Shown: positions 2,478 through 53,231, counted from the stretch's first letter. The stretch is DNA of 64,000 bases from an uncultured Eubacteriales bacterium (GCA_964645765.1 CAZYBE010000007.1:2644-66643); one strand, 5' to 3'. Numbers and translations: made by a program. The notes: generated from the sequence alone by a model not told the origin.

Positions 2478-2955
2478 TAAAGTTACATTTTGATGTGACA
2501 TGGGGATCCCTTTTTTGGAATTACATGGATTAGACAGCCCTATCGACCGTTCGGTTGACGGGCTCTTCAGAATGTCGTACGGCCAGGGAGAGACAAAGTT
2601 GGGACTGCAGAGGAAAGCTTCGCGATCCCCGCGATGACGTGGAGAACCAACACGATCGTCTTGAATCTGGCAGAATATAAGAAATTGGTTTTCGGCTGCG
2701 CTGGCCAAGTGGGCATCTCTGTCTCCGTACGCCCGTTCAATCATCGTGTGGGATTGTAAATCATGACAAAAAAAGATGTCAAGGACAGCTTGGGGGCGCG
2801 GGGTATGTCGGCAAAGCGATCCGAGGCGCCAAAAGTGCCTAAAATCACCCAGACCTCTCCTCCCGAGGAAAGAAAAGGCGATGGACTTCAGATAATCCAT
2901 CCGCTCCTAAAGGATTAAGGCCGATTTTCCGGCTGAGGAGAAGTATTCCCCTGGC

Positions 2956-6952: not shown

Positions 6953-8690
6953 CTTTTCCCTCCTTTTTTATCGCTTTTTGTGGAGAGCGGATTTGCTTGA
7001 GTTGCTCCTTAAAGACATCGCCGAGAGTCAGCCTTTTCTGGCTCTGAATATATTTTTGATACTCCAACTTCTGCAGATCGAACTGGGCCTGTCTGAAGCT
7101 GAGTGAAATTTTTTTCTCTCTGGGGCTCATCTTGATAATTTTGGCCAAGCGCTCTTCCCCCACAGAGAAAGCCTCTTTAGGATTTTCGATCCTGTTCTCG
7201 TCGAGCTCAGAGAGGAAGACAATGCCCTCGATTCCAGGAGTGATTTCAACGAAGACCCCAAAATCTGTCAGGCGGACAACCTTCACCTTGACCAGGTCTC
7301 CGACCTTCTGCCGCTCGAAGAAATCCTCCCAAATATCTCCCTCAAGCTGTTTAATGCCCAATGATAATTTTTGCTTTTCGACATCGATGTTCAAAATTAT
7401 GGCCTCTGTCTCCTGGCCAACCTTCAGTATCTGGGATGAATGTTTAATTCTTTCCCAGCTGATATCAGAAATGTGAATCAGCCCCTCCACCCCGGGCTCG
7501 ACTTCCATGAAGGCTCCAAAATCCGTTATGCTGGTTATGGTGCCTTTGACCCTCGAACCTGGGCTGTACTTCTGCTTGAGAATCTCAAGGGGATGAGGCG
7601 TCACCTGCTTAAGACCCAACGAGATTCTTTTTGCTGAAGAGTTGATATCCAGGACAGAAACCAAAACCTCTTCTCCTGGGCTGAGGACTTTTTTGGGATG
7701 GACGAGTTTTCTCGACCAGGTTAGGTCTGAAACATGGACCAAGCCTTCCACACCCTTTTCGAGCTCGATAAAAGCTCCGAAGTCTGTGAGACTTACCACC
7801 CTCCCCTTGTATTTTTGTCCGATTTTATATTTTTCCTCGATTTTTTCCCATGGATCAGGAGTTAATTGTTTATAACCGAGAGAGATTTTTTCCTCTTTTT
7901 CATTGAAGTCGAGCACCGTAACTTCAACTTCATCACCCACTTTGAAAAGCTCAGCGGGGTGATTAAGCTTCCCCCACGACATATCTGAGACGTGAAGCAG
8001 GCCTTCCACTCCTCCGATATCTATAAAAGCCCCGAAGTTTGTCAGGGATTTGACTTCTCCTTTTATCTTTTGCCCTCGGCTGAGCTGGCTGAACAGCCGC
8101 CTTTTTCTCTTTTCCTTTTCATCCTGGAGGAAAAGTTTTCGAGAGAGAACCGCATTCTCGGTCCTCCTGTCGAATTTTATGACTTTAAATTTAAAGTTGT
8201 TTCCTATGAGTTTCTCTGGCTCCTTGACGGCCCTGATGTCGGCATGGGAATCAGGAAGGAATGTGTCGATTCCGACGTTGACGGTGTATCCATTCTTTAT
8301 TTTTCCGGTGATTTTTCCAACGACCCATGTCTTCTGGTTAAAAGCTTTTTCCAGGTTGTTCAGGGCACTCAGGGCGACTGCTTTTTTATGGGAGAGGATG
8401 AGATAGCCGTCTTTTCGGTTGCTGCGCTCGAACATGGCTTCGACCTCATCACCAGGGCGAATGTCTTCGAGCTGCGCGCTTTTATCGAAATCCTCGATGG
8501 GAATGACTCCTTCTGACTTAAAGCCGATATCGAGAAGGACATGGCTGGGTGTGACTTTAATCACTTTTCCTTTGATGATTCTTCCTGGAACCAACTCCTT
8601 GGCGTTGAACTGGTACTTGTCTAGCCACTTTTCATAGTCTTCAGAAGAGTCTTTTTCATCTTTCTGGATGTTTTTCCTTACCTCTGACAT
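6945..8690 (-). CDS. rpsA: 30S ribosomal protein S1
   Basis: 581 aa with six repeated S1 OB-fold domains (GxV..TDFGAFI/V.. repeated). Confidence 0.9.
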   Translation of the reverse strand: MSEVRKNIQKDEKDSSEDYEKWLDKYQFNAKELVPGRIIKGKVIKVTPSHVLLDIGFKSEGVIPIEDFDKSAQLEDIRPGDEVEAMFERSNRKDGYLILSHKKAVALSALNNLEKAFNQKTWVVGKITGKIKNGYTVNVGIDTFLPDSHADIRAVKEPEKLIGNNFKFKVIKFDRRTENAVLSRKLFLQDEKEKRKRRLFSQLSRGQKIKGEVKSLTNFGAFIDIGGVEGLLHVSDMSWGKLNHPAELFKVGDEVEVTVLDFNEKEEKISLGYKQLTPDPWEKIEEKYKIGQKYKGRVVSLTDFGAFIELEKGVEGLVHVSDLTWSRKLVHPKKVLSPGEEVLVSVLDINSSAKRISLGLKQVTPHPLEILKQKYSPGSRVKGTITSITDFGAFMEVEPGVEGLIHISDISWERIKHSSQILKVGQETEAIILNIDVEKQKLSLGIKQLEGDIWEDFFERQKVGDLVKVKVVRLTDFGVFVEITPGIEGIVFLSELDENRIENPKEAFSVGEERLAKIIKMSPREKKISLSFRQAQFDLQKLEYQKYIQSQKRLTLGDVFKEQLKQIRSPQKAIKKEGKDD

Positions 8691-9556
8691 TGGACGATAT
8701 TCTCCCTATGAGATTGGTTTCTGAAGCTCGCCTTGATTTTAGACACAGCTTCTTGGATGGCTTCTGGAGGAGTCGAAGCCCCCCCTGACAGTCCTATTTT
8801 TTTTGCTCCTTCGAGCATTCGAGGAGTGATTTGCCCCGCGCTTTCGATGAAATATGTTTTGGGCAGGATCCTCTTTGAGATTTGGTAAAGCTTGTTGGTG
8901 TTGGAGCTCGACCTTCCGCCAACGATGAGCAAGGCGTCGACCTGAGATGCAAGCTCTGAAGTGGACTTTTGTCGAGTCTGGGTGGAGTGGCAGATGGTGT
9001 TGTAAACCCTCAATTGTTCTGTCTTCTCGATTAAAGCAGCAACAATTTTCTGGAAAAGATAGATGTCTTGAGTGGATTGAGCAAGCACGGCTCTTTTTTT
9101 TCGCTGAGGAAGGGAGCGTGCTTGTTCCTCGTTTTCAACGATGATTCCTTTTGTGCGGCTATATCCGATAAGTCCTTTAATCTCAGGGTGTTCTTTATTT
9201 CCGACGATGATGATTTCTGCTTTTTCCTTGGCCAGGCGCTCGACCAACCTCTGAATTTTTTTGACAATAGGACAGGTGGCATCGATGACTTCTATTTTTT
9301 TCTTGGCCAGGAGGCTATAGACCGCGGGCGAAACTCCATGGCTGCGGATGATGACCGTTCCTCGGCTGAGCTTTTCAAACTCGTCGATGGAATGAATTCC
9401 TTTTTTTTCCAGGTCGGCAATGATCTGAGGATTGTGGATCAGAGCTCCCAGGGTGAAAACTGCACCTTCTCTTTTTTCCCTTGTTTTCCTGACGATGTTC
9501 AAGGCTCTTCTAACTCCATAACAGAGACCAGAGTTTTTGGCGACTATGATTTCCAT
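8678..9556 (-). CDS. ispH: 4-hydroxy-3-methylbut-2-enyl diphosphate reductase
   Basis: 292 aa with N-terminal GLCYGVRRAL and the conserved Cys ligands of LytB/IspH. Overlaps the rpsA start. Confidence 0.9.
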   Translation of the reverse strand: MEIIVAKNSGLCYGVRRALNIVRKTREKREGAVFTLGALIHNPQIIADLEKKGIHSIDEFEKLSRGTVIIRSHGVSPAVYSLLAKKKIEVIDATCPIVKKIQRLVERLAKEKAEIIIVGNKEHPEIKGLIGYSRTKGIIVENEEQARSLPQRKKRAVLAQSTQDIYLFQKIVAALIEKTEQLRVYNTICHSTQTRQKSTSELASQVDALLIVGGRSSSNTNKLYQISKRILPKTYFIESAGQITPRMLEGAKKIGLSGGASTPPEAIQEAVSKIKASFRNQSHRENIVQCQR

Positions 9557-9684
9557 GTCTTTCAGGGTTGGATAATATTGATGAAATATACTATATTAGT
9601 CAAGCCTGTTTGTCAATCTTAACTATAGATAAAATCTTCACTTAGCTTCATTTCGGCGAGTTGAGAAGGGGAAGCCTTCTTCTC

Positions 9685-10233
9685 TTATTCTTCAAGGTCT
9701 GACTGCTCCTCCAAGATTTTCTTGATTTCTTCTGGAGAGGGGAGGTCGTCGAGTCTGTTAAGGCCAAAGTAGGCTAAGAATTTATCCGTCGTCCGGTAGA
9801 GGAGGGGGCTTCCAGGGCTTTTTTTCCTGCCCACGATTCTGATCAACTTTTTTTGGAGGAGAGTTTTCAGAGTGTGAGTAGAATCAACGCCTCTCAGAGC
9901 CGAGATTTCAGAAAGGGTTGTGGGCTGCTTGTAAGCGATGGCTGATAAAGTCTCGAGAGAGGCAGAAGAGAGTTTATTCTTTCTTTCCATCTTGAGAAGG
10001 CGCCTGACCCAGGGGTCATACTCTGGTTTTGTCGATAGAAGATAGCCCCCTGCTCGCTGGATGATTTGAATTCCATGGTCGTTTGAAGCATAGCTTTCTT
10101 GGAGCTCTTTGAAGGCCTGCTCGACCTCTTCCACAGGGAATTCTTGAAGGACCTCTTTCATCCTCTGCAAAGAGAGGGGTTCCTGGGAGATAAAGACCAA
10201 GGATTCAATGATTTCCTTAATCTTCGTGTCCAT
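9685..10233 (-). CDS. scpB: Segregation and condensation protein B
   Basis: 182 aa. ESLVFISQEPLSL and winged-helix repeats typical of ScpB. Lies immediately downstream of scpA. Confidence 0.85.
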   Translation of the reverse strand: MDTKIKEIIESLVFISQEPLSLQRMKEVLQEFPVEEVEQAFKELQESYASNDHGIQIIQRAGGYLLSTKPEYDPWVRRLLKMERKNKLSSASLETLSAIAYKQPTTLSEISALRGVDSTHTLKTLLQKKLIRIVGRKKSPGSPLLYRTTDKFLAYFGLNRLDDLPSPEEIKKILEEQSDLEE

Positions 10234-10973
10234 CAGTTGCTCTTGTAAGCCTTTTTTCTGAGCCAGACTTTAATCGGCTGAAAGTGGCTTTCCTGCGTGG
10301 CGATGATGATTCTTGATTTGATGAGCTCCAGGAGGCTGAAAAAAGCGATAAAGGCTTCTTCGAAGGATTCCTGCCGGTTAAAGTAGTCCAGAAAATCGAG
10401 ATAAGAATTCCTTTTTAATTCTTCGATGATTTCTCTCATCTTCTGTTCGAGAGAAATCTCCTCTCCTTTGATCGTCTTCGCTTCTTCCCTCTTCCTTTGC
10501 TTCATGAGCCTGAAAAAGGACTCTGCCAAATCGAAGAGGGAGACTTCGATGAAATCCATCTCATCGGTTTCAACGAGAGGAGGAAGAAAAGTTCTTCTCC
10601 ACATCTGAAGCTCTTCTTCCTCCTTCTCTTTCAGAAGGAGGCTGGCTGTTTTGATTTTTTGATAATCCACCAGGCGTTCTACGAGGAGTTGACGCAGGTC
10701 TTTTTCTTCCTCCAGGGTTTTCTCTCGGGGAAGAAGCATCTGAGATTTGATGTAGATGAGAAGCGCGGCGATGAGCAGGAATTCGGCTTCACGGTCGAGA
10801 TTCAACCTTTCTTTATGATTGAGGTATTCCAGATACTCTCTGGTGATGACGGCGATAGGGATATCATGGATATCGATTTTTCTTTTCTTGATCAGGAAGA
10901 GGAGAAGGTCAAGCGGGCCTTGAAAAGCTTCCAGCCTGACCTGGTAGGTTTCGGAAGCGTCCATAGTGTCCAA
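10233..10973 (-). CDS. scpA: Segregation and condensation protein A
   Basis: 246 aa. FQGPLDLLLFLIKKRKIDIHDIPIA N-terminal motif of ScpA kleisins. Confidence 0.85.
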   Translation of the reverse strand: MDTMDASETYQVRLEAFQGPLDLLLFLIKKRKIDIHDIPIAVITREYLEYLNHKERLNLDREAEFLLIAALLIYIKSQMLLPREKTLEEEKDLRQLLVERLVDYQKIKTASLLLKEKEEEELQMWRRTFLPPLVETDEMDFIEVSLFDLAESFFRLMKQRKREEAKTIKGEEISLEQKMREIIEELKRNSYLDFLDYFNRQESFEEAFIAFFSLLELIKSRIIIATQESHFQPIKVWLRKKAYKSN

Positions 10974-10981
10974 CTGGTCTT

Positions 10982-11974
10982 TTAAAAGCCGAGCCGAGCC
11001 CTGACTTCCTCCATCGTCTTTTGAGCTGCATCCCTTGCTCGCCTGTTTCCTTCTTCGAGGATATCCCAGACAAGCCGGGGGTTTTTCTTGAAGTTTTTCC
11101 TCTTTTCCCTGTAAGGAGAAAGGATTTCATCCAGCCTCTCGATGACGACATTCTTGCATTCCAAACAGCCAATGCCGGCTGTTCGGCACCCTTGAGCCAA
11201 TTCCTCTCTTTTTTCTTGAGTGACAAAAGCCTTATGCAGAGTAAAGGCTGGACAGTCTTCCGGCTCACCGGGGTCTGTCCTTCGTTTGCGCCTGATGTCG
11301 GTCATCATCGTTTCGATTTTTTGTCGCATGGTCTGCGGAGGATCCTGGAGGAAAATGGCGTTGCCGTAGGATTTACTCATCTTGCGACCGTCTATTCCAG
11401 CAAGCCTCGGAACTTCGCTGAGCAGAGTCTGAGGCTCAGGGAATGTCTTTCCGTAAAGCCGGTTGAAGCGCCTTGCCACTTCTCTGGTGAATTCGAGGTG
11501 ATAAACCTGGTCCTCTCCGACAGGGACGACATCTGCCTTGTAGATCAGGATATCAGCCGCTTGAAGCATGGGATAGCCGAGAAAGCCATAGGTATTGAGC
11601 TCTTTATCCGGGTTCTCCCGCTGCATCTCTTTGAAAGTCGGAACTCTTTCCAGCCAGGGAAGGGGAGTGACCATCGACAGAACGAGGTGCAGCTCAGCGT
11701 GCTCCTTGACCTCGGACTGAATGAAGAGAACAGATTTATTCGGGTCCAATCCGATGCTCATCCAATCCACGGCCAATTCGAGCGTGTATTCTTTGATGAC
11801 CTTCGAATTCTGGTATTCGGAGCTCAGGGCATGCCAAGTGACGATGGTATAAAAGCAGCGATATTCGTCTTGCATTTTAATCCAGTTGCGGAGCGGTCCG
11901 GCCAGATGGCCGAGATGGAGAGGGCCTGTCGGCCTCATCCCGCTGAGAACAACTTTTTTCTTTTTTCCCTTCAT
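10982..11974 (-). CDS. trpS: Tryptophan--tRNA ligase
   Basis: Class I aaRS HIGH (GPLHLGHL) and KMSKS motifs. Start taken at the internal ATG 11972-11974 (MKGKKKK), 1 nt after the upstream M50 protease stop. The track ORF extends to 12010. Confidence 0.9.
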   Translation of the reverse strand: MKGKKKKVVLSGMRPTGPLHLGHLAGPLRNWIKMQDEYRCFYTIVTWHALSSEYQNSKVIKEYTLELAVDWMSIGLDPNKSVLFIQSEVKEHAELHLVLSMVTPLPWLERVPTFKEMQRENPDKELNTYGFLGYPMLQAADILIYKADVVPVGEDQVYHLEFTREVARRFNRLYGKTFPEPQTLLSEVPRLAGIDGRKMSKSYGNAIFLQDPPQTMRQKIETMMTDIRRKRRTDPGEPEDCPAFTLHKAFVTQEKREELAQGCRTAGIGCLECKNVVIERLDEILSPYREKRKNFKKNPRLVWDILEEGNRRARDAAQKTMEEVRARLGF

Positions 11975-11975
11975 T

Positions 11976-12656
11976 TTAAATAAAGATAATGGTGTAAATG
12001 AGAAGCTCAATAGGCCTGATGATGATATTGAGAAGCCCGAGATAAATTAAAGCCAGGACAATGATAAAGCCGAAGGGACGGATCCTCTCATATTTTTGAG
12101 CAGCTTCGTCAGAGAGAAGACCCATCAGGACTCCGCTCCCATCCAGCGGCGGGATAGGAATGAGATTGAAGATTGCCAAGTAGGTATTGATCAATACGGC
12201 GTAGAAGAGGAGTAGAGTCAAGCCTTGAAGAGGATATAAGCCGCGGGGGAGAAAGCCATGGCCGAGGAGAAAAGACCCGAGAAAGGATTTGAGCTCAGGT
12301 TTCATAGTTTTGAAGAGGAGAATTCCAGCCAAAGCGATTGCAGCCGCAGCCAAGTTTGAGGCCGGGCCGGCTGCTGATATCCAGAGGTTGTCCCGCCGCG
12401 GATTTCTCAGGTTTATGGGGTTGACTGGAACTGGCTTAGCCCAGCCAAAAAGCGGAGCTTTGAGGATGAGGAGGATGAGGGGAAAGAGAATTGTGCCTAT
12501 TGGGTCGATGTGGGCTAATGGATTGAGTGAGACTCGGCCCAGATTGTAGGCTGTGGGGTCTCCCATTTTATGTGCTGCCCAGCCGTGAGAGGCTTCGTGG
12601 ATGGTTATGGCAAAGAGAAGGACGAAAACCGAGATGACAATCGAAACGATATTCAT
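11976..12656 (-). CDS. M50-family (site-2 protease-like) membrane metalloprotease
   Basis: 226 aa polytopic membrane protein with HEASHGWAAH (HExxH) in a transmembrane segment. Confidence 0.7.
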   Translation of the reverse strand: MNIVSIVISVFVLLFAITIHEASHGWAAHKMGDPTAYNLGRVSLNPLAHIDPIGTILFPLILLILKAPLFGWAKPVPVNPINLRNPRRDNLWISAAGPASNLAAAAIALAGILLFKTMKPELKSFLGSFLLGHGFLPRGLYPLQGLTLLLFYAVLINTYLAIFNLIPIPPLDGSGVLMGLLSDEAAQKYERIRPFGFIIVLALIYLGLLNIIIRPIELLIYTIIFI

Positions 12657-12704
12657 CTTAAACTAGAGCTATTTATAACATAAGAATGGCTTGGAGTAAA
12701 CTGT

Positions 12705-12925
12705 AAAAGCTGAATGGCTCTAAAACACGCCGCTTTTGCCCCAGCAAGCGAAGGCAGGGTGGTGAGAAAGCCGTGTGAAAGGCTGAGCGGGCATGGTTCC
12801 TCGACCGAAGGGAGAGGAGAGCGAAGCCTTGAACCGAGCCGCTTTTGCCTCGCCGGGGCAAAAGCGGCGTGCTTTCTCACCACCCTGCCTGAGCCATTCA
12901 AACGGTTTTCTCGCCATTCAGCTTT
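12705..12925. repeat. Structured intergenic repeat element, copy A (nested inverted repeats, MITE/REP-like)
   Basis: Terminal inverted repeat AAGCTGAATGGCTC / GAGCCATTCAGCTT. Inner arm CCGCTTTTGCC occurs three times (two direct, one inverted). The core GAAAGGCTGAGCGGGCATGGTTCCTCGACCGAAGGGAGAGGAGAGCGAAGCC is shared with the copies at 21.4, 26.4 and 53.0 kb. Confidence 0.6.
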
Positions 12926-12994
12926 TCCAGTTTATGAGATGAAAAAGGATTATGAAATTTTTTGCAAAAAAAGTTGCCTGTCCTCTTTTTTAGA

Positions 12995-14575
12995 TTAGCT
13001 TTTCAGGATTTTATCGACTTCTTCTCTATCGACTTCAGTTATGTAGGGAATACCGCTTATCTCTGCAGCATCCTTGGTCAAGGCAGCGATATCGTCGCGG
13101 CTGATGTAGCTCAGGTTGAACTTTCTGTTTCCAGCCATGAGCTGGCGCAAGCCTTGGCTGAGCCTCGAGAAATAGCTGAAGAGACCCATAGCACCGGTGG
13201 GTATTTCGCTGTACCTTTCTTGGTATTTCATCTTAAGTTCCGGCGCAGTGACAAAGATTTCTTCAGCCGTGCTGCCGAAGCGCTCGACATAGACCGGAAT
13301 CTGTCCTTCCTGGATTCTGCGGCCTATTGTTTTTCCGACCATGGTCGCTGCCAGAGGAGCTCTGGCCATTCCCACGGTTTTAAAATAAGGAGCTCCCAAG
13401 GCTAATGCTTTGTAAATTTGGTCTTCAAAAGTGATGCCGCCAGCGGCTGCTACATCCGGGATGTACTCTCCTTTTTCGTCGAGCCTGCGCAGGTATTGAT
13501 AGAGGAGGGACCAGATTTCGACGCTCGGAATTCCCCATTCGTTCATCATCCGCCAGGGGCTCATTCCTGTTCCGCCGCCAGCGCCGTCAACTGTTAAAAG
13601 GTCGATCTTGGCTTTTGAGGAGAATTTGACCGCCCTGGCCAAGTCCGCAGGCCTATAAGCTCCGGTCTTGAGGAAGACATATTTTGCACCTGCCTTTCTC
13701 AATTCCTCGACTCTTTTCATGAAGCCTTCCTCCTCGACCATTCCCAGCCTGGAGTGCCTCTCGAACTCCTTGAAGCTTCCCTTTTCAAAGGCCTGGATGA
13801 TACTCGGGTCATCAGGGTCGGGCAGGACAATATAGCCTCTTTTCTTCAATTCCTGGGCCTTCTTGAGGCTCTTGATCTTGACCTCTCCGCCGATGTCCTT
13901 GGCTCCTTGTCCCCATTTCAGCTCCACGGCTTCAACTCCCAATTTCTGGATGGCATACTCATGAACCCCAAGCCTTGTATCCTCGACATTGGCCTGGATG
14001 ACAACTGTTCCATAACGGTCTTCCTGGAAATCTTTGAAAAATTTGACCCTGGACTCCATGTCAGGAGAGCGGACGATCTTCCCATTCTTGATTTCAGATT
14101 CATCATCCATCCCGCAGACATTCTCTCCGATGGTGAGAATCGTCCCGGCTATGGCCGCTCCTTTGGCCAGGCCTTCCCAATTTTGCTTGGCCACGTTTGT
14201 TGAACCCATACCGCAAAGGATGAAGGGAACTTTTAGCTTAATTCCTTTGTCGTGTCCGACCGCGGTCTCGATGCTGACCTTAGGAAAGGTGGCTTTGTCG
14301 CTGTCGGCTTCAACGCCATAGGCTCCGACAGCCGTGCCCATGATGCTGAAGTGAGAAAGGTCCACAGGATACTCTTTCTCCGAGGCGGCGGTGATGATGC
14401 CAAAGGGCTGGGGATAGAGGACTTCGGGGCCGCGATAAGCAGATTTTCCTATTTCGCACATTCCGATGCAGCCGTCGACACAGGTCACGCACATTCCGCT
14501 GAAAGGACTGACCGAGCCTTCTGTTCTGTTCTTGGTCAAAGTGGCTGCGCTTCTGTTGAGTTTTGTATAAGCCAT
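12995..14575 (-). CDS. Glutamate synthase domain-2 (FMN-binding) family protein with N-terminal Cys cluster
   Basis: 526 aa. N-terminal CVTCVDGCIGMCEIG (Cx2Cx3Cx3C). Central GltB-like FMN barrel (DGAGGGTG, GIPSVE) matches the PF01645-type family. No amidotransferase or GXGXG domains. Confidence 0.75.
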   Translation of the reverse strand: MAYTKLNRSAATLTKNRTEGSVSPFSGMCVTCVDGCIGMCEIGKSAYRGPEVLYPQPFGIITAASEKEYPVDLSHFSIMGTAVGAYGVEADSDKATFPKVSIETAVGHDKGIKLKVPFILCGMGSTNVAKQNWEGLAKGAAIAGTILTIGENVCGMDDESEIKNGKIVRSPDMESRVKFFKDFQEDRYGTVVIQANVEDTRLGVHEYAIQKLGVEAVELKWGQGAKDIGGEVKIKSLKKAQELKKRGYIVLPDPDDPSIIQAFEKGSFKEFERHSRLGMVEEEGFMKRVEELRKAGAKYVFLKTGAYRPADLARAVKFSSKAKIDLLTVDGAGGGTGMSPWRMMNEWGIPSVEIWSLLYQYLRRLDEKGEYIPDVAAAGGITFEDQIYKALALGAPYFKTVGMARAPLAATMVGKTIGRRIQEGQIPVYVERFGSTAEEIFVTAPELKMKYQERYSEIPTGAMGLFSYFSRLSQGLRQLMAGNRKFNLSYISRDDIAALTKDAAEISGIPYITEVDREEVDKILKS

Positions 14576-14648
14576 AATGATTACCTCCTTGTTGTCAAAT
14601 TTATTTTATAAGCAGCGAAGAGCAATAAACTCAAAAATATTCTCATTT

Positions 14649-15368
14649 CTATTTGCTCGCTCTTGTCTGCTCCTTCTTTTCTGATTTTTCGCTCTTTTCT
14701 CGAACGCAAGTTCCGCAGCGGCCGACGTCATACATCCAGCACTGAAGCTCATCGTAATGGTCAAGGCAGGTTGGGTCCATGGTCAAACAGGCATTGCAGA
14801 CCGCTGTCTCTGCCTGAGGCCCCTGGCATCTCAACTGGCAAGCCGGACAGATGTACATACAGCCGCCGCAAAGCCGGCATTCCTCAGAGCGGATGTCGAA
14901 AGGAGTGGATATTTTTCTTCTATGGCCTCGCTTTTGAAAGCCAATCGCCCGGCCGTCCATCTGTTCCGCACACATCCGGACGCAGAGGCCGCAGAGGATG
15001 CATTCTTCGTTTCGAATCTTGAACCTGACCTGTTTGACTCCAAATTTAGAGGCTAGGTCTTGGATAATTTTTGAGTTTGGTGCGAGGGAAAGCATGAGCT
15101 CGATCATCATCTTTCGAGTTTCAATGACTCTGCGGGTATCGGTTCTGACCACGAGCCCTTCCTCCACAGGATAGGTGCAAGAAGAGACCAATTTGGACTT
15201 AGGTTCCTGACCTATCTCCACAAGACAAAGACGGCAGCCGCCAAAGCGGCTTAATCCTTCGTGGTAACAGAGGGTTGGTATTTCCATGCCGTAAAATCTA
15301 GCCGCATCTAAAATGGTTTGGCCTTTTTCTGCTTTAACTTCCAAGGCGTTTATATATAGTGTAATCAT
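14649..15368 (-). CDS. NuoG/HydA N-terminal-like Fe-S protein (2Fe-2S plus 4Fe-4S ferredoxin domains)
   Basis: Start taken at MITLYINALEV (ATG 15366-15368). Plant-type 2Fe-2S motif (CYHEGLSRFGGCRLCLVEI) followed by CILCGLCVRMC and CRLCGGCMYICP clusters. No molybdopterin or hydrogenase catalytic domain. Confidence 0.7.
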   Translation of the reverse strand: MITLYINALEVKAEKGQTILDAARFYGMEIPTLCYHEGLSRFGGCRLCLVEIGQEPKSKLVSSCTYPVEEGLVVRTDTRRVIETRKMMIELMLSLAPNSKIIQDLASKFGVKQVRFKIRNEECILCGLCVRMCAEQMDGRAIGFQKRGHRRKISTPFDIRSEECRLCGGCMYICPACQLRCQGPQAETAVCNACLTMDPTCLDHYDELQCWMYDVGRCGTCVREKSEKSEKKEQTRASK

Positions 15369-15375
15369 TTTTTCC

Positions 15376-17226
15376 TCACTCGATTTTAATCGCATCAAAG
15401 TTGCAAGCCTCACAGCAGGCTCCGCATTTAATGCATTTCACTGGATCGATAACATGGACTTTTTTTAATTCCCCAGAAATAGCTCCCTGGGGACAGACCT
15501 TCAGACAGGCTAAGCAGCCTGTGCATTTTTCTTCTATGATAGAGTATTGGATTAATTTTGTACAAACCCCTGCCGGACATTTTTTATCTTTTATGTGAGC
15601 TTCAAATTCATCCCTGAAGTACCGAATCGTGGAAAGGACTGGATTGGCAGCCGTTTGGCCCAGACCACACATGGAAGCATCCCTGGTGGCTTTAGCCAGA
15701 GCCATAAGGAACTCGAGGTCTCCTTCCTTTCCTCTTCCTTCTGAGATATCAGTGACCATTTCCCACATTCTTTGAGTCCCTTCCCGGCAGGAGAGACATT
15801 TGCCACAGGATTCATCTCTTAGAAAATTCAAGAAATATTTAGCCACGTCCACCATGCAGGTATTTTCATCCATAACGATCATCCCCCCAGACCCCATCAT
15901 CGAGCCAACTTCAGCCAGGCTCTCATAATCAATGGGCAGGTCAAGCTTTTCTTTAGGGATGCATCCGCCTGAGGGACCGCCGGTCTGAACAGCCTTGAAT
16001 TCTTTCCCCCCTGGGATTCCTCCGCCGATGTCAAAGATGATTTCTCTCAAGGTGATTCCCATTGGGACTTCCACCAGCCCTGTGTTATTGATTTTTCCGA
16101 CGAGTGAAAATATTTTGGTTCCCTTGCTTTTCTCTGTGCCTATTCTTGAGAACCAATCAGCCCCCCGGTTTATGATCGCAGGAGCATTAGCCCAAGTCTC
16201 GACATTATTAATATTCGTCGGCTTCCCCCAAAGTCCCTCTTGGGCGGGATAGGGAGGCCTCTGTTTGGGGATTCCAATTTTTCCTTCGATACAAGCCAAT
16301 AACGCTGATTCTTCGCCCGAGACAAACGCTCCAGCTCCTTTTGAGATTGAAATATCGAAGCTGAAGTCAGTGCCAAGTATATTTTTTCCGAGTAAGTTAT
16401 ATTCTCTGGCTTGGTCAAGAGCAATGGTGATATTTTCGACGGCAAGCGGATATTCTGCACGGACATAAATAATTCCTTCTTTTGCGCCTATGGCATAGGC
16501 TCCGATGAGCATACCTTCGATGACGCTATGGGGATTTCCCTCCAATAAACTTCTATCCATATAAGCACCTGGGTCACCTTCATCACAATTACAGACGATA
16601 TATTTTTTATCTCCCTTGGCTTTGCTTGTAAATTCCCATTTATATCCAGTGGGAAAACCTGCTCCACCTCGTCCTCTTAATCCAGATTTTTTGATTTCCT
16701 CTAAAACTCCATGGGGGGTCATGGTTTGCAGGGCTTTAGCGATGGCTGAATAGCCATTCACAGCTATGTAATCTTTGATTTCAGTGGGGTCGACGAAACC
16801 ATTGTTTCCAAAAATGATTCGTTTTTGTTCTTTATAGAAAGGGACTTCCTTTTCATACACAATCTTTTCTTCAGTTTGGGGATGAACATAAAGAAGGCGA
16901 TCAATAATTTTTTTCTCTTTAATTGTTTTTGAAATAACTTCTTTAATATCTTTAAGTTGAATTCGCTGGTAGAAAATTCCTTCAGGCTGGATGACGATGA
17001 TCGGCCCTCTTTCACAGAACCCATGACAGCCCGTCGTTCGAACTTCGGCGACATCCTGAAGATTTTGATTTTTAATTTCATCCTTGAAAGCCTGGGCAAC
17101 TTTTTGACATCCATATGCATGACAACCTGTTCCACTGCAGATGGTAATGATGGATTTCCCATTTTTGCGGGATTTTAGAATATCTTTTCTTAGCTCGTCT
17201 AATTTTTTGATATTCATACTTCCCAT
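15376..17226 (-). CDS. NuoF-like NADH-binding flavoprotein subunit (HydB/HndC architecture)
   Basis: 616 aa. N-terminal thioredoxin-like 2Fe-2S domain (CSGTGCHAYGC ... CHGFCERGP). 51-kDa core (GRGGAGFPTGYKWEF, SCGKCLSCREGT). Two C-terminal 4Fe-4S ferredoxin motifs. Confidence 0.85.
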   Translation of the reverse strand: MGSMNIKKLDELRKDILKSRKNGKSIITICSGTGCHAYGCQKVAQAFKDEIKNQNLQDVAEVRTTGCHGFCERGPIIVIQPEGIFYQRIQLKDIKEVISKTIKEKKIIDRLLYVHPQTEEKIVYEKEVPFYKEQKRIIFGNNGFVDPTEIKDYIAVNGYSAIAKALQTMTPHGVLEEIKKSGLRGRGGAGFPTGYKWEFTSKAKGDKKYIVCNCDEGDPGAYMDRSLLEGNPHSVIEGMLIGAYAIGAKEGIIYVRAEYPLAVENITIALDQAREYNLLGKNILGTDFSFDISISKGAGAFVSGEESALLACIEGKIGIPKQRPPYPAQEGLWGKPTNINNVETWANAPAIINRGADWFSRIGTEKSKGTKIFSLVGKINNTGLVEVPMGITLREIIFDIGGGIPGGKEFKAVQTGGPSGGCIPKEKLDLPIDYESLAEVGSMMGSGGMIVMDENTCMVDVAKYFLNFLRDESCGKCLSCREGTQRMWEMVTDISEGRGKEGDLEFLMALAKATRDASMCGLGQTAANPVLSTIRYFRDEFEAHIKDKKCPAGVCTKLIQYSIIEEKCTGCLACLKVCPQGAISGELKKVHVIDPVKCIKCGACCEACNFDAIKIE

Positions 17227-17708
17227 TATTCAGCTTTACTCCTTTTCTCAGGCCTGAATTTTTTAATGAGCTTGTCAACTTTTCTGATTTTCATTTGGCC
17301 GTAATAATCCCCATCGATGACAGCGATGGGTCCCAGAGCGCAGGCCCCTAAACAGTTGACGGTTTCTAATGTAAACAGGTTATCTTTCGTTGTTTCTCCG
17401 ACCTTTATGTTGAGCCTTCTTTTAAACTCTTCTAAGACCAGCGGAGCTCCTCTGACGTGACAAGCCGTGCCCATGCAAATGGTAATCAGATGCTTTCCCC
17501 GAGCGGTGAGGCTGAAAATATTATAGAAGGTGGCGATGCTTATCACATCCATCAGAGGAACTTCTAAAGCTTCTGATACCTTTATCAAAGCATTTTGAGG
17601 AAGATAATTAAATTTAGCCTGAATGTCTTGAAGGATGGGCATTAAGTATTTCTTTTCTTGGGGATGCTTTTTTATTATTGTATCGAATTCAGCGACTTCG
17701 GGTTGCAT
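17226..17708 (-). CDS. NuoE-like 24-kDa thioredoxin-like 2Fe-2S subunit
   Basis: 160 aa. CMGTACHVRG ... CLGACALGP motif. Confidence 0.85.
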   Translation of the reverse strand: MQPEVAEFDTIIKKHPQEKKYLMPILQDIQAKFNYLPQNALIKVSEALEVPLMDVISIATFYNIFSLTARGKHLITICMGTACHVRGAPLVLEEFKRRLNIKVGETTKDNLFTLETVNCLGACALGPIAVIDGDYYGQMKIRKVDKLIKKFRPEKRSKAE

Positions 17709-17972
17709 GAGTCTTCTCCAAATTTGATATTGTCTAAATTAAGGATTCTTTTGAATTGAGGGGAAGATTGATAATTGAATTATGAAATTTATAATTCCTC
17801 CTCTTAACTTTTAATATAAATAATATAAAAAATAAAAATTATTAACACTTTTTTATAACAGATATTCATTATTCTTGTCAAGAATTCGTGTTATTTAAAG
17901 TTGAAAAGTGTTATTTATGTTATTTAAAGTTGAATTCGAGGACGAATTCGAGGACGAGGACAAAAAGAATTC

Positions 17973-18001
17973 TTGACAGTGAATAGGAATTAGCCATAAT
18001 T
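17973..18001 (+). promoter_or_regulatory. Putative sigma-70 promoter for speH (TTGACA-N16-CATAAT)
   Basis: TTGACA at 17973-17978 and CATAAT at 17995-18000, about 30 nt upstream of the speH ATG. Embedded in an AT-rich region with direct and inverted repeats. Confidence 0.35.
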
Positions 18002-18029
18002 ACTTCCAAACTGTCCGAGGAGAAGAAGG

Positions 18030-18485
18030 ATGACAAAAAAGATTCACCGAGCCATAGGCCATCATTATATCGTCGAAGCATCCGGATGCGACCCCGAGGT
18101 GATCAGCAGCGTCGACAAAGTCCAGCAGATCTTGGTCAAAGCTGCAGAAATTGCCGGAGCTCAGGTCTGGTCTATTTCTGTCAACAGGTTTCCTCCTAAG
18201 GGAGTCAGTGGAGTCATCGTCATTTCTGAGTCTCATATTTCCACCCACACCTGGCCAGAATACAGGTATGGAGCTCTGGACTTTTACACCTGCGGCAGTT
18301 CTGTTGATCCAGAGAAGGCGGTGTTCTATGCTGTCGAAGCTTTTGGTGCCACGACTTCTCACGTCACGGAGATCACACGAGGAATTGAGGAAGGAGACAA
18401 AATTTTTTACCACAGCTTTATCACTTGGGAAGAGGATTTTGTCACCGAGAAAAAAAAGAGAATAGATGCCAAGAAGTTAAGCTAA
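18030..18485 (+). CDS. speH: S-adenosylmethionine decarboxylase proenzyme (class 1, SpeH type)
   Basis: 151 aa. ESHISTHTWPE self-cleavage/pyruvoyl motif. Confidence 0.85.
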   Translation: MTKKIHRAIGHHYIVEASGCDPEVISSVDKVQQILVKAAEIAGAQVWSISVNRFPPKGVSGVIVISESHISTHTWPEYRYGALDFYTCGSSVDPEKAVFYAVEAFGATTSHVTEITRGIEEGDKIFYHSFITWEEDFVTEKKKRIDAKKLS

Positions 18486-18762
18486 GATTCCAGAGAATAT
18501 TTCAAAATTCCCGGCTTCCTCCCTTCAGCTCTCTCTGTTAAGTTTCTTTACAATTTACGACTCATCATAATCCAACCTTGAATAAAATTCTGAGGGAATT
18601 CCCCAAAACAGGACGTTCATCTTTTGATTCAAATGGCATAAAAATTGCTATTTTTAGTCGAGGGCCAAAGATGAAGCTTATGGAAGGATGGGAGAAATCG
18701 AAACTTAGATTTCCTATTTTTTTAATAGATTTTCTTAAATTTGATATAATAAAAATAGAACA

Positions 18763-21372
18763 ATGAAAAAAAGATTCATCATTCAAGCCTTTGCTTTTTT
18801 GCTCCTTTTCCTTCTCTTAGCCTTTGAAGCTCGCTCGCAGGAAGATGCTGCGACCGGGCTGGTCGCTCAGATGCAAAAGTCCTTGAACGAGAGAGACATT
18901 CCGGCTTACCTGGAGAATTTCGAAGAGGAGCTCAGGGCCAAAGAGGAGGCAAGCATAAAAAGCAGGTTCGATCAATTCCTGATGGACAGCGTGACTTTGT
19001 ACAAAGCCGGGAAGCTGAGCCAGACCGCAGATGAAACAAAAATATTTCTTCAGGCTCTGTTTCAGAACTCTTTTTCAGTGATTATTGAAAACTGGCGGCT
19101 GAGCCTCATCGAGGTGGATGGACGATGGATGGTCAGCAAAAAGGACATCGTCGGGAGCGTCTCCACCCTTTATAAAATCAAAATCCCCTCTGAAAGGGCT
19201 GAAAGAGTCATGTCGATTGAAATCGAGCACGTGGATATGAAGCTCGTCTTTAAAGATGCCCTCGTCTTTTTTGACAACATTCCTGAGCTGGAAACAGCCT
19301 TGCTCGTCGTCGGTAAAGGTCATGTAACTTTTACTCCTTCAGACCCCGAAGAAAGACACCAGCTTGACCTCATCTATAAAAAAAGCTCTCTTGACGATGA
19401 GCTCTCCTGTGCCTATCTCAGGTTCTCCAGCTATTTTTTTCAGAATAACATCAGGATTGAAAAAGGCAAGGATGACCGCCAGGTTTCTGATTTAGAAAAA
19501 AACAACGCCTATTCTCTTTTTTCCAGGCATTATCCCAATTCCTTCACTATCGAACATTCCCTCAACAAGGAGCTGTATTCGACCTTGCCTCAAGGAGAAG
19601 AGGCTGCCATTGATTTTAATGGAAAGAAGTATGGGAACCTGACCTATATCTATACCCCTTTTTCAGATGAGGAGGTCCATCTTTATCGCTGGAAAGATGA
19701 GAAGATCATCAGCCTCTATTCGCCTTTCGTCGAAGACAAAAAGAAGAGAATGGTTGTGACTTTTGGCGAGATGTTCAATGTCACGAATTATAAAATTGAT
19801 GTTGATTTTAATCCCACGCAGTCTTTTCTTTCTGGAAAAGCAGAAGTTGAGATCAAGCCTAAGGTGGACTCCCTGGAAAGAGTCAAGCTTAAATTGAACT
19901 CCAAATTCGAAATTCTTCGTATCTATGACCAGGAGATGAATGAGCTTTTTTACAGCCGGGATAAATTGAGAGAGCTTCTTTATATTTACTTCATCAACCC
20001 TCCTTCTCGAGAGAGGCCTTGCACGATTGAGATTTTTTATCGAGGGAAAATTTCGCTTCCCGCGCAGGTTGAAGATTCCGTCAACCCCTATCAAGAGCAA
20101 CGCGAATCCCTTGTCTTCATTCCTCCAAAGTTTGACAGTTATCTCTTCACTCGACGCTCCTACTGGTATCCTTCTCCTTCAGATGATGATTATTTTACGG
20201 CAAGGTTGAGAATCATTGTTCCACCCGGATACAGCTGTGTTTCTAATGGTGATTTGATTGAGCAGGGCAAATTGGATAGAGCGGAGAGAGTCGAGGAAGT
20301 GGACAAAGTGGGGAGCTCTGTTTATATCTTCGAGACAAAATATCCTCTGAAATATCTCTCTTTTATTGTCGGAGACATCACCAAAGTCAAAGAAGATTCA
20401 GGCTCTCTCCCGCTCCAACTCTACTCCTCCTCTGAAATCTATTTTCAAAAGAGGGGCCTTGTCGAGGACGCCAAAAGGATTATTCAATTCTATGAAAGCA
20501 AGTTTGGGCCTTTTCCGTATGAGAAGTTGGGAATTGTCCAGAGAAATTGGTCTTCTAGCGGAGGGCACTCCTCCCCTTCCTTTATCGTTCTCAACGAGCT
20601 GCCCCAAGTCGCAGAAGGAGGGCATTATGTCAGTGTCCGGAGCCCCGTCGACCTCTCCCGCTGGAAAGAATATTTCATCGCTCACGAAATCGCCCACCAG
20701 TGGTGGGGGCAAGCTGTCACCTGGAAAACCTATCATGACCAATGGCTGAGCGAGGGATTGGCTCAATTTGCCGCGGCTCTCTATTTGAGAGAAAGCCATG
20801 GCCAGGACGCTTATTCCATTATCCTCAAGAGGTTCTCTCTATGGACGGAAAAATATTCAAAATGGGGTCCCATCAGCCTGGGCTCTCGCCTCAGCCTTTT
20901 TAATTTCAATGCTTACCAGTCCATCATTTATAACAAAGCTTCTCTGGTGTTAAATCTGCTTAAAGATTTTCTGGGCGAGGAAGTTTTCTTTGGGGGATTA
21001 AGAGAATTTTTTGAAAAATACAAATATAACACAGCCGGCACCCGAGATTTTCAGAGAATCATGGAAAATGTTTCAGGAAAAGACCTGACAATTTTCTTCA
21101 AGCATTGGTTTTCGTCCTATCTTCTTCCGGAACTCAAAGTTGCCCATTCTGTGAAAAAGGAAAAGGATGGATTGGTCCTGGAAGTCAGAGTGACCCAGCT
21201 CAGGGAGCAATTTGTTTTTCCGCTGTGGATAGAGTGGATGGAGAAGGGAGAGAAAGTCAGGAAAGTGCTCATTGTTGATGACAAGACTAAGGTTTTTGAG
21301 TTTAGGTTAGGGGAAAAACCGCAGAAGATAAGAGTGAATCCTGATAAAGCCCTGCCAGGAAAATTGTTATAG
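18763..21372 (+). CDS. Secreted M1-family zinc aminopeptidase (aminopeptidase N-like)
   Basis: 869 aa with a signal peptide. HEIAHQWWG ... WLSEGLAQF zinc-binding HExxH-x18-E signature. Confidence 0.8.
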   Translation: MKKRFIIQAFAFLLLFLLLAFEARSQEDAATGLVAQMQKSLNERDIPAYLENFEEELRAKEEASIKSRFDQFLMDSVTLYKAGKLSQTADETKIFLQALFQNSFSVIIENWRLSLIEVDGRWMVSKKDIVGSVSTLYKIKIPSERAERVMSIEIEHVDMKLVFKDALVFFDNIPELETALLVVGKGHVTFTPSDPEERHQLDLIYKKSSLDDELSCAYLRFSSYFFQNNIRIEKGKDDRQVSDLEKNNAYSLFSRHYPNSFTIEHSLNKELYSTLPQGEEAAIDFNGKKYGNLTYIYTPFSDEEVHLYRWKDEKIISLYSPFVEDKKKRMVVTFGEMFNVTNYKIDVDFNPTQSFLSGKAEVEIKPKVDSLERVKLKLNSKFEILRIYDQEMNELFYSRDKLRELLYIYFINPPSRERPCTIEIFYRGKISLPAQVEDSVNPYQEQRESLVFIPPKFDSYLFTRRSYWYPSPSDDDYFTARLRIIVPPGYSCVSNGDLIEQGKLDRAERVEEVDKVGSSVYIFETKYPLKYLSFIVGDITKVKEDSGSLPLQLYSSSEIYFQKRGLVEDAKRIIQFYESKFGPFPYEKLGIVQRNWSSSGGHSSPSFIVLNELPQVAEGGHYVSVRSPVDLSRWKEYFIAHEIAHQWWGQAVTWKTYHDQWLSEGLAQFAAALYLRESHGQDAYSIILKRFSLWTEKYSKWGPISLGSRLSLFNFNAYQSIIYNKASLVLNLLKDFLGEEVFFGGLREFFEKYKYNTAGTRDFQRIMENVSGKDLTIFFKHWFSSYLLPELKVAHSVKKEKDGLVLEVRVTQLREQFVFPLWIEWMEKGEKVRKVLIVDDKTKVFEFRLGEKPQKIRVNPDKALPGKLL

Positions 21373-21414
21373 TTCCCTTTGAGTTAGGCCCTTCCCCCAG
21401 GCTTCGTATTGTAA

Positions 21415-21700
21415 GGCGAAGGCGGATTGCTTCGAGAGCCGTATGAAAGGCTGAGCGGGCATGGTTCCTCGACCGAAGGGAGAGGAGAGACCTTGGAGGG
21501 GGAACCGCTTCGCGTTCCCCCTTCCAACGCTTCTGCTGCCTCCCCTTCTCGGACGCTTAAAAGCGTCCTGCGACCAAGGGGTCATACCCCCTTGGAACCC
21601 CCGCTGCTTTGCCGATGGGCAAAGCAGCGAAGCCTTGAATCGAGCCGCTTTTGCCTCGCTGGGGCAAAAGCGGCGTGCTTTCGAAGCAATCCGCCTGAGC
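21415..21700. repeat. Structured intergenic repeat element, copy B (extended, with four extra hairpin modules)
   Basis: Termini GGCGGATTGCTTCGA / TCGAAGCAATCCGCC. Shares the core GAAAGGCTGAGCGGGCATGGTTCCTCGACCGAAGGGAGAGGAGAG and the GCCGCTTTTGCCTCGCTGGGGCAAAAGCGGCGTG arm hairpin. Internal insert carries the hairpins GGGGGAAC/GTTCCCCC, GGACGC/GCGTCC, CCAAGGGG/CCCCTTGG and GCTGCTTTGCC/GGCAAAGCAGC. Confidence 0.6.
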
Positions 21701-21704
21701 CGAT

Positions 21705-23090: not shown

Positions 23091-23092
23091 TT

Positions 23093-25975: not shown

Positions 25976-25999
25976 GTTGGCAAAAAATATATGGATGGC

Positions 26000-26275: not shown

Positions 26276-26341
26276 AGTCTTAAAAATAAATCTTTCAATT
26301 TAAATTGTCAATATATGGGTTAGCATCTTTTTTTCCATGAT

Positions 26342-26586
26342 GGAAAACCGCGTTATGGCTCAGGCTGGGTGTTTCGAAAACACGCAGGCTTTGCATCACC
26401 AAGCTAAGGCAGAGTGGCGAGGAAGCCGTGTGAAAGGCGGAGCGGGCACGGTTCCTCGACCGAAGGGAGAGGAGAGCGAAGCCTTGAACCGAGTCGCTTT
26501 TGCCTCGCTGGGGCAAAAGCGGCGTGCCTTCGAATCACTCTGCCGGAGCCATTCAAACGGTTTTCTTAAACACCCAGCCTGAGCCT
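26342..26586. repeat. Structured intergenic repeat element, copy C
   Basis: Termini GGCTCAGGCTGGGTGTTT / AAACACCCAGCCTGAGCC and GAAAACCG / CGGTTTTC. Same core and CCGCTTTTGCC arm hairpin as copies A, B and D. Confidence 0.6.
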
Positions 26587-26804
26587 TTCACATCACGGAT
26601 TCGTGGATGGTTCCAATATATGGCAGCAAGTGACTTTTTTGATTGGGCAGAAAAAATAAACAATAAGGTTCATTTTAAATTAAATATCACCTCTTTAGAG
26701 TATATAAAACTCACCTTAAAAGCTGATTGACTTATTCTATATATATTTAATAAAATTACATTTAAAATAGATAAAAATACAGAGTTTTTGAAAATAGCCG
26801 CGGG

Positions 26805-26892: not shown

Positions 26893-26934
26893 CGGAAGAG
26901 GAAATGCTCACTGACAGATCATCGACTTAAAAAG

Positions 26935-52977: not shown

Positions 52978-53122
52978 GAGGCTCAGGCTGAGTAGTTAGA
53001 AAACACGCCGCTTTTGCCCCAGCGAGGCAAAAGCGGCTCGGTTTCAGGCTTCGCTCTCCTCTCCCTTCGGTCGAGGAACCATGCCCGCTCAGCCTTCAAA
53101 CGGTTTTCTAACTACTCAGCCT
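52978..53122. repeat. Structured intergenic repeat element, copy D (short form, inverted orientation)
   Basis: Termini GGCTCAGGCTGAGTAGTTAGAAAAC / GTTTTCTAACTACTCAGCC. Contains the CCGCTTTTGCC arm hairpin and the core in reverse complement. Confidence 0.6.
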
Positions 53123-53231
53123 TCGCCTTAAAGAGTCCATAGCTTTTGTCCTTATAATTTTTCCTGTATAATCCTCTTGCCTTTCTGCGCGAGGGCAGAG
53201 ATATCTTTTTAAATTCCTTAGGAGAAAACAA

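Follow-up and report, generated by a model that had tools for sequence, protein, structure and literature searches.

REPINs are built from two inverted, highly conserved REP (repetitive extragenic palindromic) sequences at the ends of a less conserved spacer (PMC3116915), and each REP ends on one side in a tag, GTAG or CGTC, that stays unpaired (PMC3733652). Here we analyzed a 64,000-nucleotide (nt) stretch of DNA assigned to an uncultured Eubacteriales bacterium (GCA_964645765.1, CAZYBE010000007.1:2644-66643; hereafter the window), in which four intergenic loci carry copies (A to D) of a non-coding unit of ~146 nt. This unit reverses the usual logic of bacterial palindromic repeats, as its branched core is conserved and its ends drift. 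We conclude, with a probability of roughly 0.6, that it is a non-coding, non-autonomous, structure-dependent mobile repeat of Aminicenantes-type genomes, with a behavior closest to that of REPs, REPINs, and bacterial interspersed mosaic elements (BIMEs). The family proved to be non-coding, multicopy, intergenic, and structured, and displayed lineage-specific expansion, one filled/empty site, self-nesting, and a partner family, E2.

Scanning the window with a covariance model of the family, with filters off, gave exactly four matches in the 64 kb, one at each of the copies A to D (Table 1; the model E-values are rough). The original prediction had claimed a core common to all four copies. A 52-nt core, for which the chance expectation is 0, is indeed present in A, C, and D; copy B contains it only if an interruption is allowed, its first 43 nt matching exactly at 21447-21489 and the rest (AGCGAAGCC...) continuing from ~21626, past a 137-nt insert. 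The coordinates first assigned to the copies were roughly right, with slightly larger true extents for A, C (~26330-26600), and D. The arm motif CCGCTTTTGCC occurs 13 times in the window with at most one mismatch (1.6 expected), and the fullest arrangement described, two direct arms and one inverted arm, applies to copy A only (12730, 12839, and 12857); B, C, and D each contain a single direct arm and a single inverted arm. The reported termini are real: outer inverted repeats specific to each copy are present, GAGCCATTCAAACGGTTTTC is common to copies A and C, and GGCTCAGGC/GCCTGAGCC termini are found at copies. On crude open reading frame (ORF) calls, the contexts also hold: A is operon-internal, B convergent, and C and D divergent, with both orientations represented.

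Table 1. Coordinates of the repeat units, their layers, and the partner element E2 (window positions unless a locus is named)
Feature	Coordinates	Strand	Evidence
Copy A, entire two-layer composite (outer inverted repeat plus inner unit)	12697..12934	+	outer repeat 12697-12726/12905-12934, 87% complementary; 52-nt core 12777-12828 (+), exact match
Copy A, inner complete unit, P1 to P4	12744..12897	+	covariance model 178.3 bits; P1 arms GGCAGGGTGGTGAGAAAGC/GCTTTCTCACCACCCTGCC fully complementary
Copy A, left outer shell, opposite-strand unit remnant (3' arm, ACG, orphan P4 arm CCGCTTTTGCC at 12730, loop)	12709..12748	-	local alignment with D: antisense 56, sense 30
Copy A, right outer shell, P2 remnant, TTCAAACGG, and 5' arm of opposite-strand unit	12889..12925	-	local alignment: antisense 44, sense 24
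Copy B, simple unit with core interrupted by E2	21412..21703	+	covariance-model matches 21412-21529 and 21553-21703 (54.8+48.8 bits); clean insert in alignment; outer repeat 21415-21439/21677-21701
E2 in copy B core, directly after AGCGA motif	21490..21626	+	same insert at same site in L031 and L051; relatives alone or in arrays elsewhere
Copy C, two-layer composite, GGCTCAGGC to GCCTGAGCC	26357..26585	+	shells score 50 and 51 antisense vs 34 and 37 sense; 52-nt core 26432-26483 (+), 2 mismatches
Copy C, inner complete unit	26399..26552	+	covariance model 156.2 bits
Copy C including third, outermost layer (..CCATGATGG../..CCGTGATG.. left, ..CATCACGG.. right)	26330..26600	.	
Copy D, simple complete unit, best family-model match	52978..53130	-	182.7 bits; RNA fold -85.4 kcal/mol, z -9.1; outer repeat 52979-53004/53103-53128; 52-nt core 53047-53098 (-), 2 mismatches
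E2 occurrences	window 21490-21626; L031, L051, L020, L107 175-963, L094, L135, L104, L119, L147		

On its sense strand (+ in A, B, and C; - in D), the unit forms a three-way junction composed of a long stem, P1, a P2–P3 arm, and a hairpin, P4. P1 is a 20-30 bp stem that varies in sequence while retaining its pairing and has conserved tandem G.A pairs within it; the P2–P3 arm includes a highly conserved asymmetric internal loop, RAGCGGGCAYGG opposite AGAGCGRAGC; and P4 has the conserved loop YCGCYGG. In copy D, the simplest copy, the - strand reads (A)GGC-GA-AGGC [P1 5' arm] CCGTTTGA AGGCT GAGCGGGCATGG TTCCTC-GA-CC-GAA-GG-GA-GAGGAG AGCGA AGCCT GAAACCGA GCCGCTTTTGCC TCGCTG GGCAAAAGCGGC GT [P1 3' arm] GCCT-GA-GCC(T).

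This fold was assessed in two alignments. Alignment A2 contained 61 copies from the window and seven species of metagenome-assembled genomes (MAGs), collected with the exact P3 23-mer as the search pattern, so that P3 is invariant in it. RNAalifold detected compensatory changes in 21 of its 40 pairs. Under the proposed structure, 89% of cells were paired, as against 37-47% when the 3' partners were slid, and 28 pairs were doubly changed; the observed values were matched by 0 of 500 shuffles, counts that are not probabilities because the copies are related. Alignment A6 was an independent and more divergent set of 78 metagenome copies, found with a pattern that left P3 free. Here, 84% of cells were paired (37-49% when slid), and double changes occurred in 41 of 45 pairs, P3 included, with pair 60-97 being C-G in 48 copies and U-A in 24, and pair 66-91 C-G in 62 and G-C in 10. 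Fitting A6 to the model biases its pair counts in favor of the structure, an effect that the slid controls mitigate. All four helices covary across the two sets, bearing out the conserved structure anticipated in the original prediction.

Conservation also extends to unpaired parts that the search pattern did not impose, namely the two sides of the internal loop (RAGCGGGCAYGG and AGAGCGRAGC), CGAR before P4, and the YCGCYGG loop; the junctions in A2 and A6 read CGT(T/G/C/A) and GCGTG. Three conserved tandem G.A/A.G pairs (mid-P1, P1 base, and P3) lie in otherwise covarying helices. At paired positions, G.A cells greatly outnumbered C.T cells (180 vs 5 in A2; 295 vs 9 in A6), and G.U exceeded A.C on the same strand (79 vs 53 and 72 vs 45, respectively, with the invariant U.G pair left out). 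The sense strand folded 10-21 kcal/mol better than its complement. A divergent unit at L113 6413-6559 has a fully Watson-Crick P3 (UUCCCGGC/GCCGGGAA), a CUUAA loop in place of GAA, and no tandem G.A, and retains AGCGGGCA and AGAGCGA; the P3 loop and the G.A pairs are therefore not strictly required. A pseudoknot between AGCGA of the internal loop and UCGCU of the P4 loop was unsupported, as its variable positions showed no covariation.

Some units are "symmetrized" variants, in which GA has changed to TC, two adjacent bases in one step, in P1 and P3. To judge from their sequences, these variants look like products of arm-to-arm template switching. Template switching is reported to create and maintain hairpins in this way (PMC8794818), and a portion of the stem covariation may thus be mechanical, arising from template switching at the DNA level and not from selection. 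That the G.A pairs have persisted against such homogenization suggests that they matter. The family is a useful case in which to tell apart selected structure and the "self-correction" of palindromes by template switching.

These features raise the alternative that the unit is primarily a gene for a structured RNA, whether a small RNA acting in trans, an RNA that binds protein, or a ribozyme that processes itself, and that this gene has been multiplied, with its core and fold kept because the RNA works. Covariation in every helix, loop and junction nucleotides fixed across genomes of 45-72% GC, the three tandem G.A motifs and the G.U over A.C excess on one strand, a sense strand that outfolds the antisense strand (z down to -9), and the orthologous copies B and L011, which are identical in the core and diverged in arms and flanks, all speak for it. 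However, the GA-to-TC symmetrization and a bias relative to GC skew (see below) are DNA-level signatures. Moreover, Rfam 15 has no matching family: at the gathering threshold, with the window and 10 diverse loci as input, tRNA alone passed, and permissive thresholds applied to the copies returned unrelated families only (best E 0.002 to 2), so that novelty, which a match to a known family would have contradicted, stood for every representative. The cores of the hammerhead, twister, pistol, and hatchet ribozymes and of group II domain V showed no likeness to the unit by eye, the formal test being that of Rfam only. We consider an RNA gene an unlikely explanation; it is not mutually exclusive with a mobile element.

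The two-layer copies A and C provided a different line of evidence. Their flanks are remnants of a unit in the opposite orientation and not extra palindromes: the left shell runs through a 3' arm, ACG, and a P4 arm with its loop, and the right shell through AGCC, TTCAAACGG, and a 5' arm. Copy A is predicted to fold into concentric hairpins (DNA dG -76.3 kcal/mol, z -10.7). The flank pair that makes up the third layer of copy C (AAATCCGTGATG ... CATCACGGAAAAA) also surrounds copies in L006, L022, L026, L053, and L076, loci from several MAGs. At one orthologous site, L035 (MAG CAZJYC) has a simple unit, and in L001 (MAG CAZGMN) a complete unit, inverted and with arms of its own, takes the place of the core, the outer boundaries being identical in the two. 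Likewise, L059 has a three-layer copy whose outermost shell is the orthologue of copy D. At the nesting joints, the resident sequences GGCTGAG... and ...GCCTCGC resemble the incoming ends GGCTCAG... and ...GCCTTCGC. Thus a resident unit can hold at its center a complete second unit of opposite orientation, and repetition of this event gives concentric "onions" such as A and C. Inverted insertion of units into one another is not the behavior of an RNA gene.

Nesting also disposes of the mutually exclusive hairpins proposed for the family, which are its by-product: alternative pairing arises in copy A because the outer shell retains an orphan P4 arm, the third arm counted in that copy. Most other nested copies have this orphan arm in degenerate form only, and it takes no part in the fold predicted for A. 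Unit variants include some that lack P4 by deletion and some with P3 replaced by other sequence. At L015 5215-5483 (reverse strand), we observed stacked 5' halves of units only, at a site where the orthologous L013 6506-6950 has the full composite; the stacked halves look like decayed or truncated remnants. The concentric inverted layers, growing in situ at orthologous sites, record a site-specific reaction whose mechanism is testable.

The insert in copy B belongs to a second small GC-rich structured repeat, E2, of ~115-137 nt. E2 consists of four hairpins, with stems that differ by copy and conserved linkers such as TCGCAGG and GAGAAGGGGAGGCAG on the purine-rich strand. Within units, its insertions favor two positions, one following AGCGA and the other in the 5' arm of P4; GC-rich contigs also contain tandem arrays of the form [E2][E2][unit], one of which is repeated twice in L107. 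An uninterrupted orthologue of copy B was found in L011, and the two share the subfamily-specific TATG/AATCG variants.

We then considered how far the family extends. The exact P3 23-mer was found in 78 stretches from seven species-level MAGs, four titled Candidatus Aminicenantes and three "uncultured Eubacteriales"; as the MAGs are fragmentary, copy numbers are lower bounds. The latter three (CAZGMN, CAZJYC, and CAZJXZ) show synteny with the window, their DNA being 72-87% identical to it, and the window aligns at 77% with a MAG titled Candidatus Aminicenantes. The "Eubacteriales" label is probably wrong. A relaxed pattern retrieved 81 further metagenome stretches, of which ~75 are real, and the covariance model gave 78 hits in the 80 loci of the metagenome set. 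The multicopy nature claimed from four copies is therefore upheld by 78 loci in seven MAG species and ~75 further metagenome loci. Nothing similar to the unit was found in viral, phage, and plasmid collections, and the literature, searched in full text for the core sequence and for any repeat or structured RNA of Aminicenantes, yielded no match.

Several observations support mobility. In MAG CAZJYC, groups of 14 and nine copies at different loci have arms that are at least 90% identical and include the same mismatches, indicating that the whole unit, often together with its shell, gets copied; bursts of up to 14 near-identical copies are again not expected of an RNA gene. In the other genomes, the arms differ in every copy, with a median identity of 68-75% compared with 90-95% for the core, and between low-GC and GC-rich copies the medians are 37% for arms and 70% for the core. 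One orthologous intergenic site measures 16 nt in L031, where it is empty, and 411 nt in L047, where it holds the element. Approximately 16 contigs end within a copy, and Logan contigs with the arginase gene that neighbors copy D also break inside D, so that these repeats visibly fragment short-read assemblies of the lineage. Together with nesting at orthologous sites, the empty/filled site, the bursts, and the contigs ending in copies are signs of the mobility proposed in the original prediction.

Next, we examined the genes around the copies. All copies are intergenic (88 classified on crude ORF calls). In the MAG set, 19 were codirectional antisense, 11 codirectional sense, 14 divergent, and eight convergent; the corresponding numbers in the metagenome set were eight, 12, four, and 12. 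The codirectional totals (23 sense vs 27 antisense) and the coding-strand majority around copies (44 vs 43) revealed no bias to the gene strand, and the flanking genes are unrelated housekeeping genes with no preferred orientation. A riboswitch-like gene association in GC-rich genomes was dismissed, as the downstream genes (YchF, aldehyde ferredoxin oxidoreductase, and a class I tRNA synthetase) are unrelated. Promoter scans at the copies identified no sigma-70-like site, and P4 followed by GUGUUUUC resembles a terminator in some low-GC subfamilies only, the U-tract being absent from GC-rich subfamilies; we accordingly rejected a promoter or intrinsic terminator of the unit's own. This random orientation and the missing transcription signals argue against an RNA gene: of the features generally used to recognize structured RNAs, covariation and conserved unpaired nucleotides were present, and a consistent transcriptional context was not.

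Conversely, when orthologous flanks were merged, 57 of 84 loci had the sense strand on whichever strand was locally richer in C (p = 0.0014). GC skew is taken here as a proxy for replication direction, and a strand bias that follows skew without a gene-strand bias points to replication rather than transcription.

The same contexts bear on the idea that the copies are domesticated cis-acting elements, serving their neighbors as mRNA-stabilizing or terminating hairpins or as nucleoid-protein or topoisomerase sites, as proposed for REP/BIME. At least a dozen copies lie within 0-15 nt of the end of a convergent gene and many adjoin stop codons, which, with the exclusively intergenic location, the terminator-like tail of low-GC subfamilies, and the persistence of copies at orthologous sites across species, would suit such a role. 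Yet 18 of the 88 classified copies are flanked by divergent genes, a position in which neither termination nor 3' stabilization makes sense, the GC-rich subfamilies are without the U-tract, the neighboring genes are unrelated, and a plain hairpin function leaves the invariant internal loop and P4 loop unexplained. We therefore regard this explanation as very unlikely.

The ends of the unit were inspected by eye. No target-site duplication was visible at the boundaries of at least 15 simple copies, so the duplications that had been suggested as a mark of insertion did not appear. The termini are not conserved, and pairing often runs a few bases into copy-specific sequence. In one subfamily, (A/G)GCGA precedes the AGGC end, and another has G(A/C/G)TC there; AGCGA is also found before E2 inserts and at nesting joints. 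On this pattern of recurrence, (A/G)GCGA/AGCGA may be a target or cleavage motif.

An ordinary miniature inverted-repeat transposable element (MITE), that is, a deletion derivative of a DDE-type insertion sequence (IS) moved by cut-and-paste via terminal inverted repeats, would account for the size, the lack of coding capacity, the inverted-repeat ends, the multicopy intergenic spread, and the nested insertions, all of which are typical of MITEs. It would not account for the invisibility of target-site duplications, for terminal arms that are the least conserved part, or for pairing that extends into copy-specific sequence. Furthermore, no IS or transposase with the unit's ends was present in ~1.1 Mb of flanking DNA, and the plasmid, phage, and viral collections had nothing similar. 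Such an origin is extremely improbable. The initial assignment to a MITE/REP-like mobile element or a multicopy small RNA is thus supported, with corrections: the family is multicopy and structured and shows signs of mobility; it is not a classical MITE, since target-site duplications, conserved terminal repeats, and a parent IS are missing, and the orientation and promoter scans do not support a small RNA.

How might such a repeat spread? We propose that the unit multiplies as DNA, accumulating in intergenic DNA, and that its copies would be made in trans by an unlinked enzyme that recognizes the folded single strand and the conserved core, not terminal repeats. Since the branched core is conserved and the ends drift, the copying agent would have to read the fold and the core. 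A single-stranded-DNA route, as with HUH/tyrosine enzymes, is our preferred guess, because target-site duplications are lacking, the non-Watson-Crick features are strand-specific, and the bias is linked to replication; our confidence in this route is much lower than in the general reading. A bolder version, which we consider distinctly unlikely, is that the three-way-junction core is itself the active module, either a ribozyme- or DNAzyme-like catalyst or the handle of an unlinked enzyme, directing site-specific insertion into matching internal sites of other copies. If true, the unit would represent a new class of mobile element, one that is guided by structure, targets its own copies, and has persisted by vertical descent across a phylum with no gene of its own or nearby.

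Several points weigh against the view that the unit is a mobile repeat. An exact empty site was not recovered, as the flanks of the L031/L047 pair are too diverged to place the boundaries, and the element ends and target are therefore undefined at base resolution; exact-protein look-ups for an empty site returned only short contigs broken at the repeat. A conserved center with variable ends is the opposite of the REPIN and MITE pattern, and the core is essentially unchanged between genomes of 45% and 72% GC. Copy B and its orthologue in L011 are identical by eye at ~100/100 nt of the core, whereas the arms differ at 7/19 (four compensated) and the flanks at ~30%; this pattern fits purifying selection on a per-locus function, and it could alternatively reflect homogenization among copies. 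The gene calls are crude longest-ORF heuristics. The skew bias of the unit would place the better-folding strand on the leading-strand template, opposite to the direction reported for IS608/ISDra2; stable hairpins on the lagging-strand template may instead have been selected against. Finally, as regards a mobilizing enzyme, tblastn with approximate queries for IS200, IS608, and RAYT, together with the actual Y1 protein of L156, located one Y1_Tnp gene only in ~1.1 Mb around ~130 copies.

This gene (L156 2669-3334; Pfam E = 4.8e-8) is 1.1 kb from a unit. It is a low-GC, IS200/RAYT-like gene lying between perfect 21-bp inverted repeats (GGGGGACACAATACTTAATTC; L156 2594-3420) that are unrelated to the unit, and one further copy of the 21-bp repeat was seen, in L124. 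A tyrosine/HUH transposase therefore exists in the clade, but with its own ends. No recurrent neighboring protein family emerged from clustering of the ORFs near copies, which yielded syntenic orthologues and spurious ORFs across repeats.

In addition to the repeats, the window has several other features. A 22-nt palindrome, AAAAAGGGGAC(A/T)GTCCCCTTTT, occurs at 26806-26828 and 26866-26888, 60 nt apart, upstream of a T2SSF/PilC-like gene, with none expected by chance, and the same palindrome replaces P3 within a unit in L019 (3659-3833); a terminator acting in both directions and a third small mobile palindrome are two possible readings. Cumulative GC skew drops until ~8-21 kb and then rises steadily (region ~8,000-27,000), and the long ORFs, which are on the - strand as far as 17.7 kb, lie mostly on the + strand from 26.9 kb onward. 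Such a switch is the pattern that would be expected at a replication origin or other strand-switch point. Tandem paralogues of ~1200 amino acids with a PilY1 beta-propeller and FG-GAP repeats (39099-42716 and 42844-46446) have 84-87% DNA identity, and a second neighboring paralogue pair (142-441 and 2946-3245) is 89% identical over 300 nt.

Among known systems, REPINs and REPs share the most with the unit (PMC3116915, PMC3733652). Like it, they are short, non-coding, extragenic palindromic repeats present in tens to hundreds of copies; REPINs also have a long hairpin predicted in single-stranded DNA or RNA, compensatory stem changes, no target-site duplication, higher-order clusters, and vertical persistence with lineage-specific expansion. 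In contrast, the ends of a REPIN are conserved and its spacer is variable, whereas the unit has variable arms around a conserved branched center of 75-100 nt. No GTAG or CGTC tag was noted by eye beside the arms in A2 and A6, a systematic tag search not having been made. Unlike the REP-RAYT system, the unit has no linked RAYT in the flanks scanned, the sole Y1_Tnp gene having unrelated inverted repeats. To our knowledge, inverted self-nesting is not a described REPIN feature. The unit thus falls outside REPINs: its conservation lies in the center and not in the ends, and the flanks scanned had no RAYT bordered by units.

BIMEs resemble the unit in that both form mosaic clusters, with palindromic units interspersed among other conserved motifs, of which E2 is the counterpart here. 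They differ in that they consist of simple REP palindromes of 35-40 nt in alternating orientation, compared with multi-hairpin blocks of 146 nt and ~115-135 nt here, and in that they are enterobacterial, with unrelated sequences in a different phylum. The MITEs Correia (Neisseria), ERIC (enterobacteria), and RUP (pneumococcus) are similar in size, inverted repeats, intergenic location, longer variants formed by internal insertion, and co-transcription with neighbors when inside operons; their termini, however, are conserved, and those with a known mechanism have target-site duplications and a cognate IS, none of which is seen in the unit.

Derivatives of IS200/IS605 elements (PATEs) and integron attC sites are recognized as folded single strands, whose two strands are told apart by non-Watson-Crick features; no target duplication is made, and orientation is tied to replication. 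The strand-specific mismatches and GC-skew bias of the unit are in line with these properties. However, IS200/IS605-type elements insert 3' of a fixed tetra- or pentanucleotide and have distinct subterminal hairpins on the left and right, while the unit shows neither separate left- and right-end hairpins nor a linked TnpA, TnpB, or integrase, and attC sites lie at cassette boundaries in arrays, while the unit is scattered between housekeeping genes. Cyanobacterial small dispersed repeats (Elhai et al. 2008) are reported to insert into hairpins and into their own copies, giving nesting; they differ from the unit in their length of ~21-27 nt, in having no conserved branched core, and in belonging to a different phylum. 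With its consensus structure, a covariance-model-ready alignment, and the partner E2, the family adds a defined repeat to a widespread uncultured lineage. In the way it works, the unit is most like REP/REPIN/BIME, yet it lies outside every described family with which we compared it.

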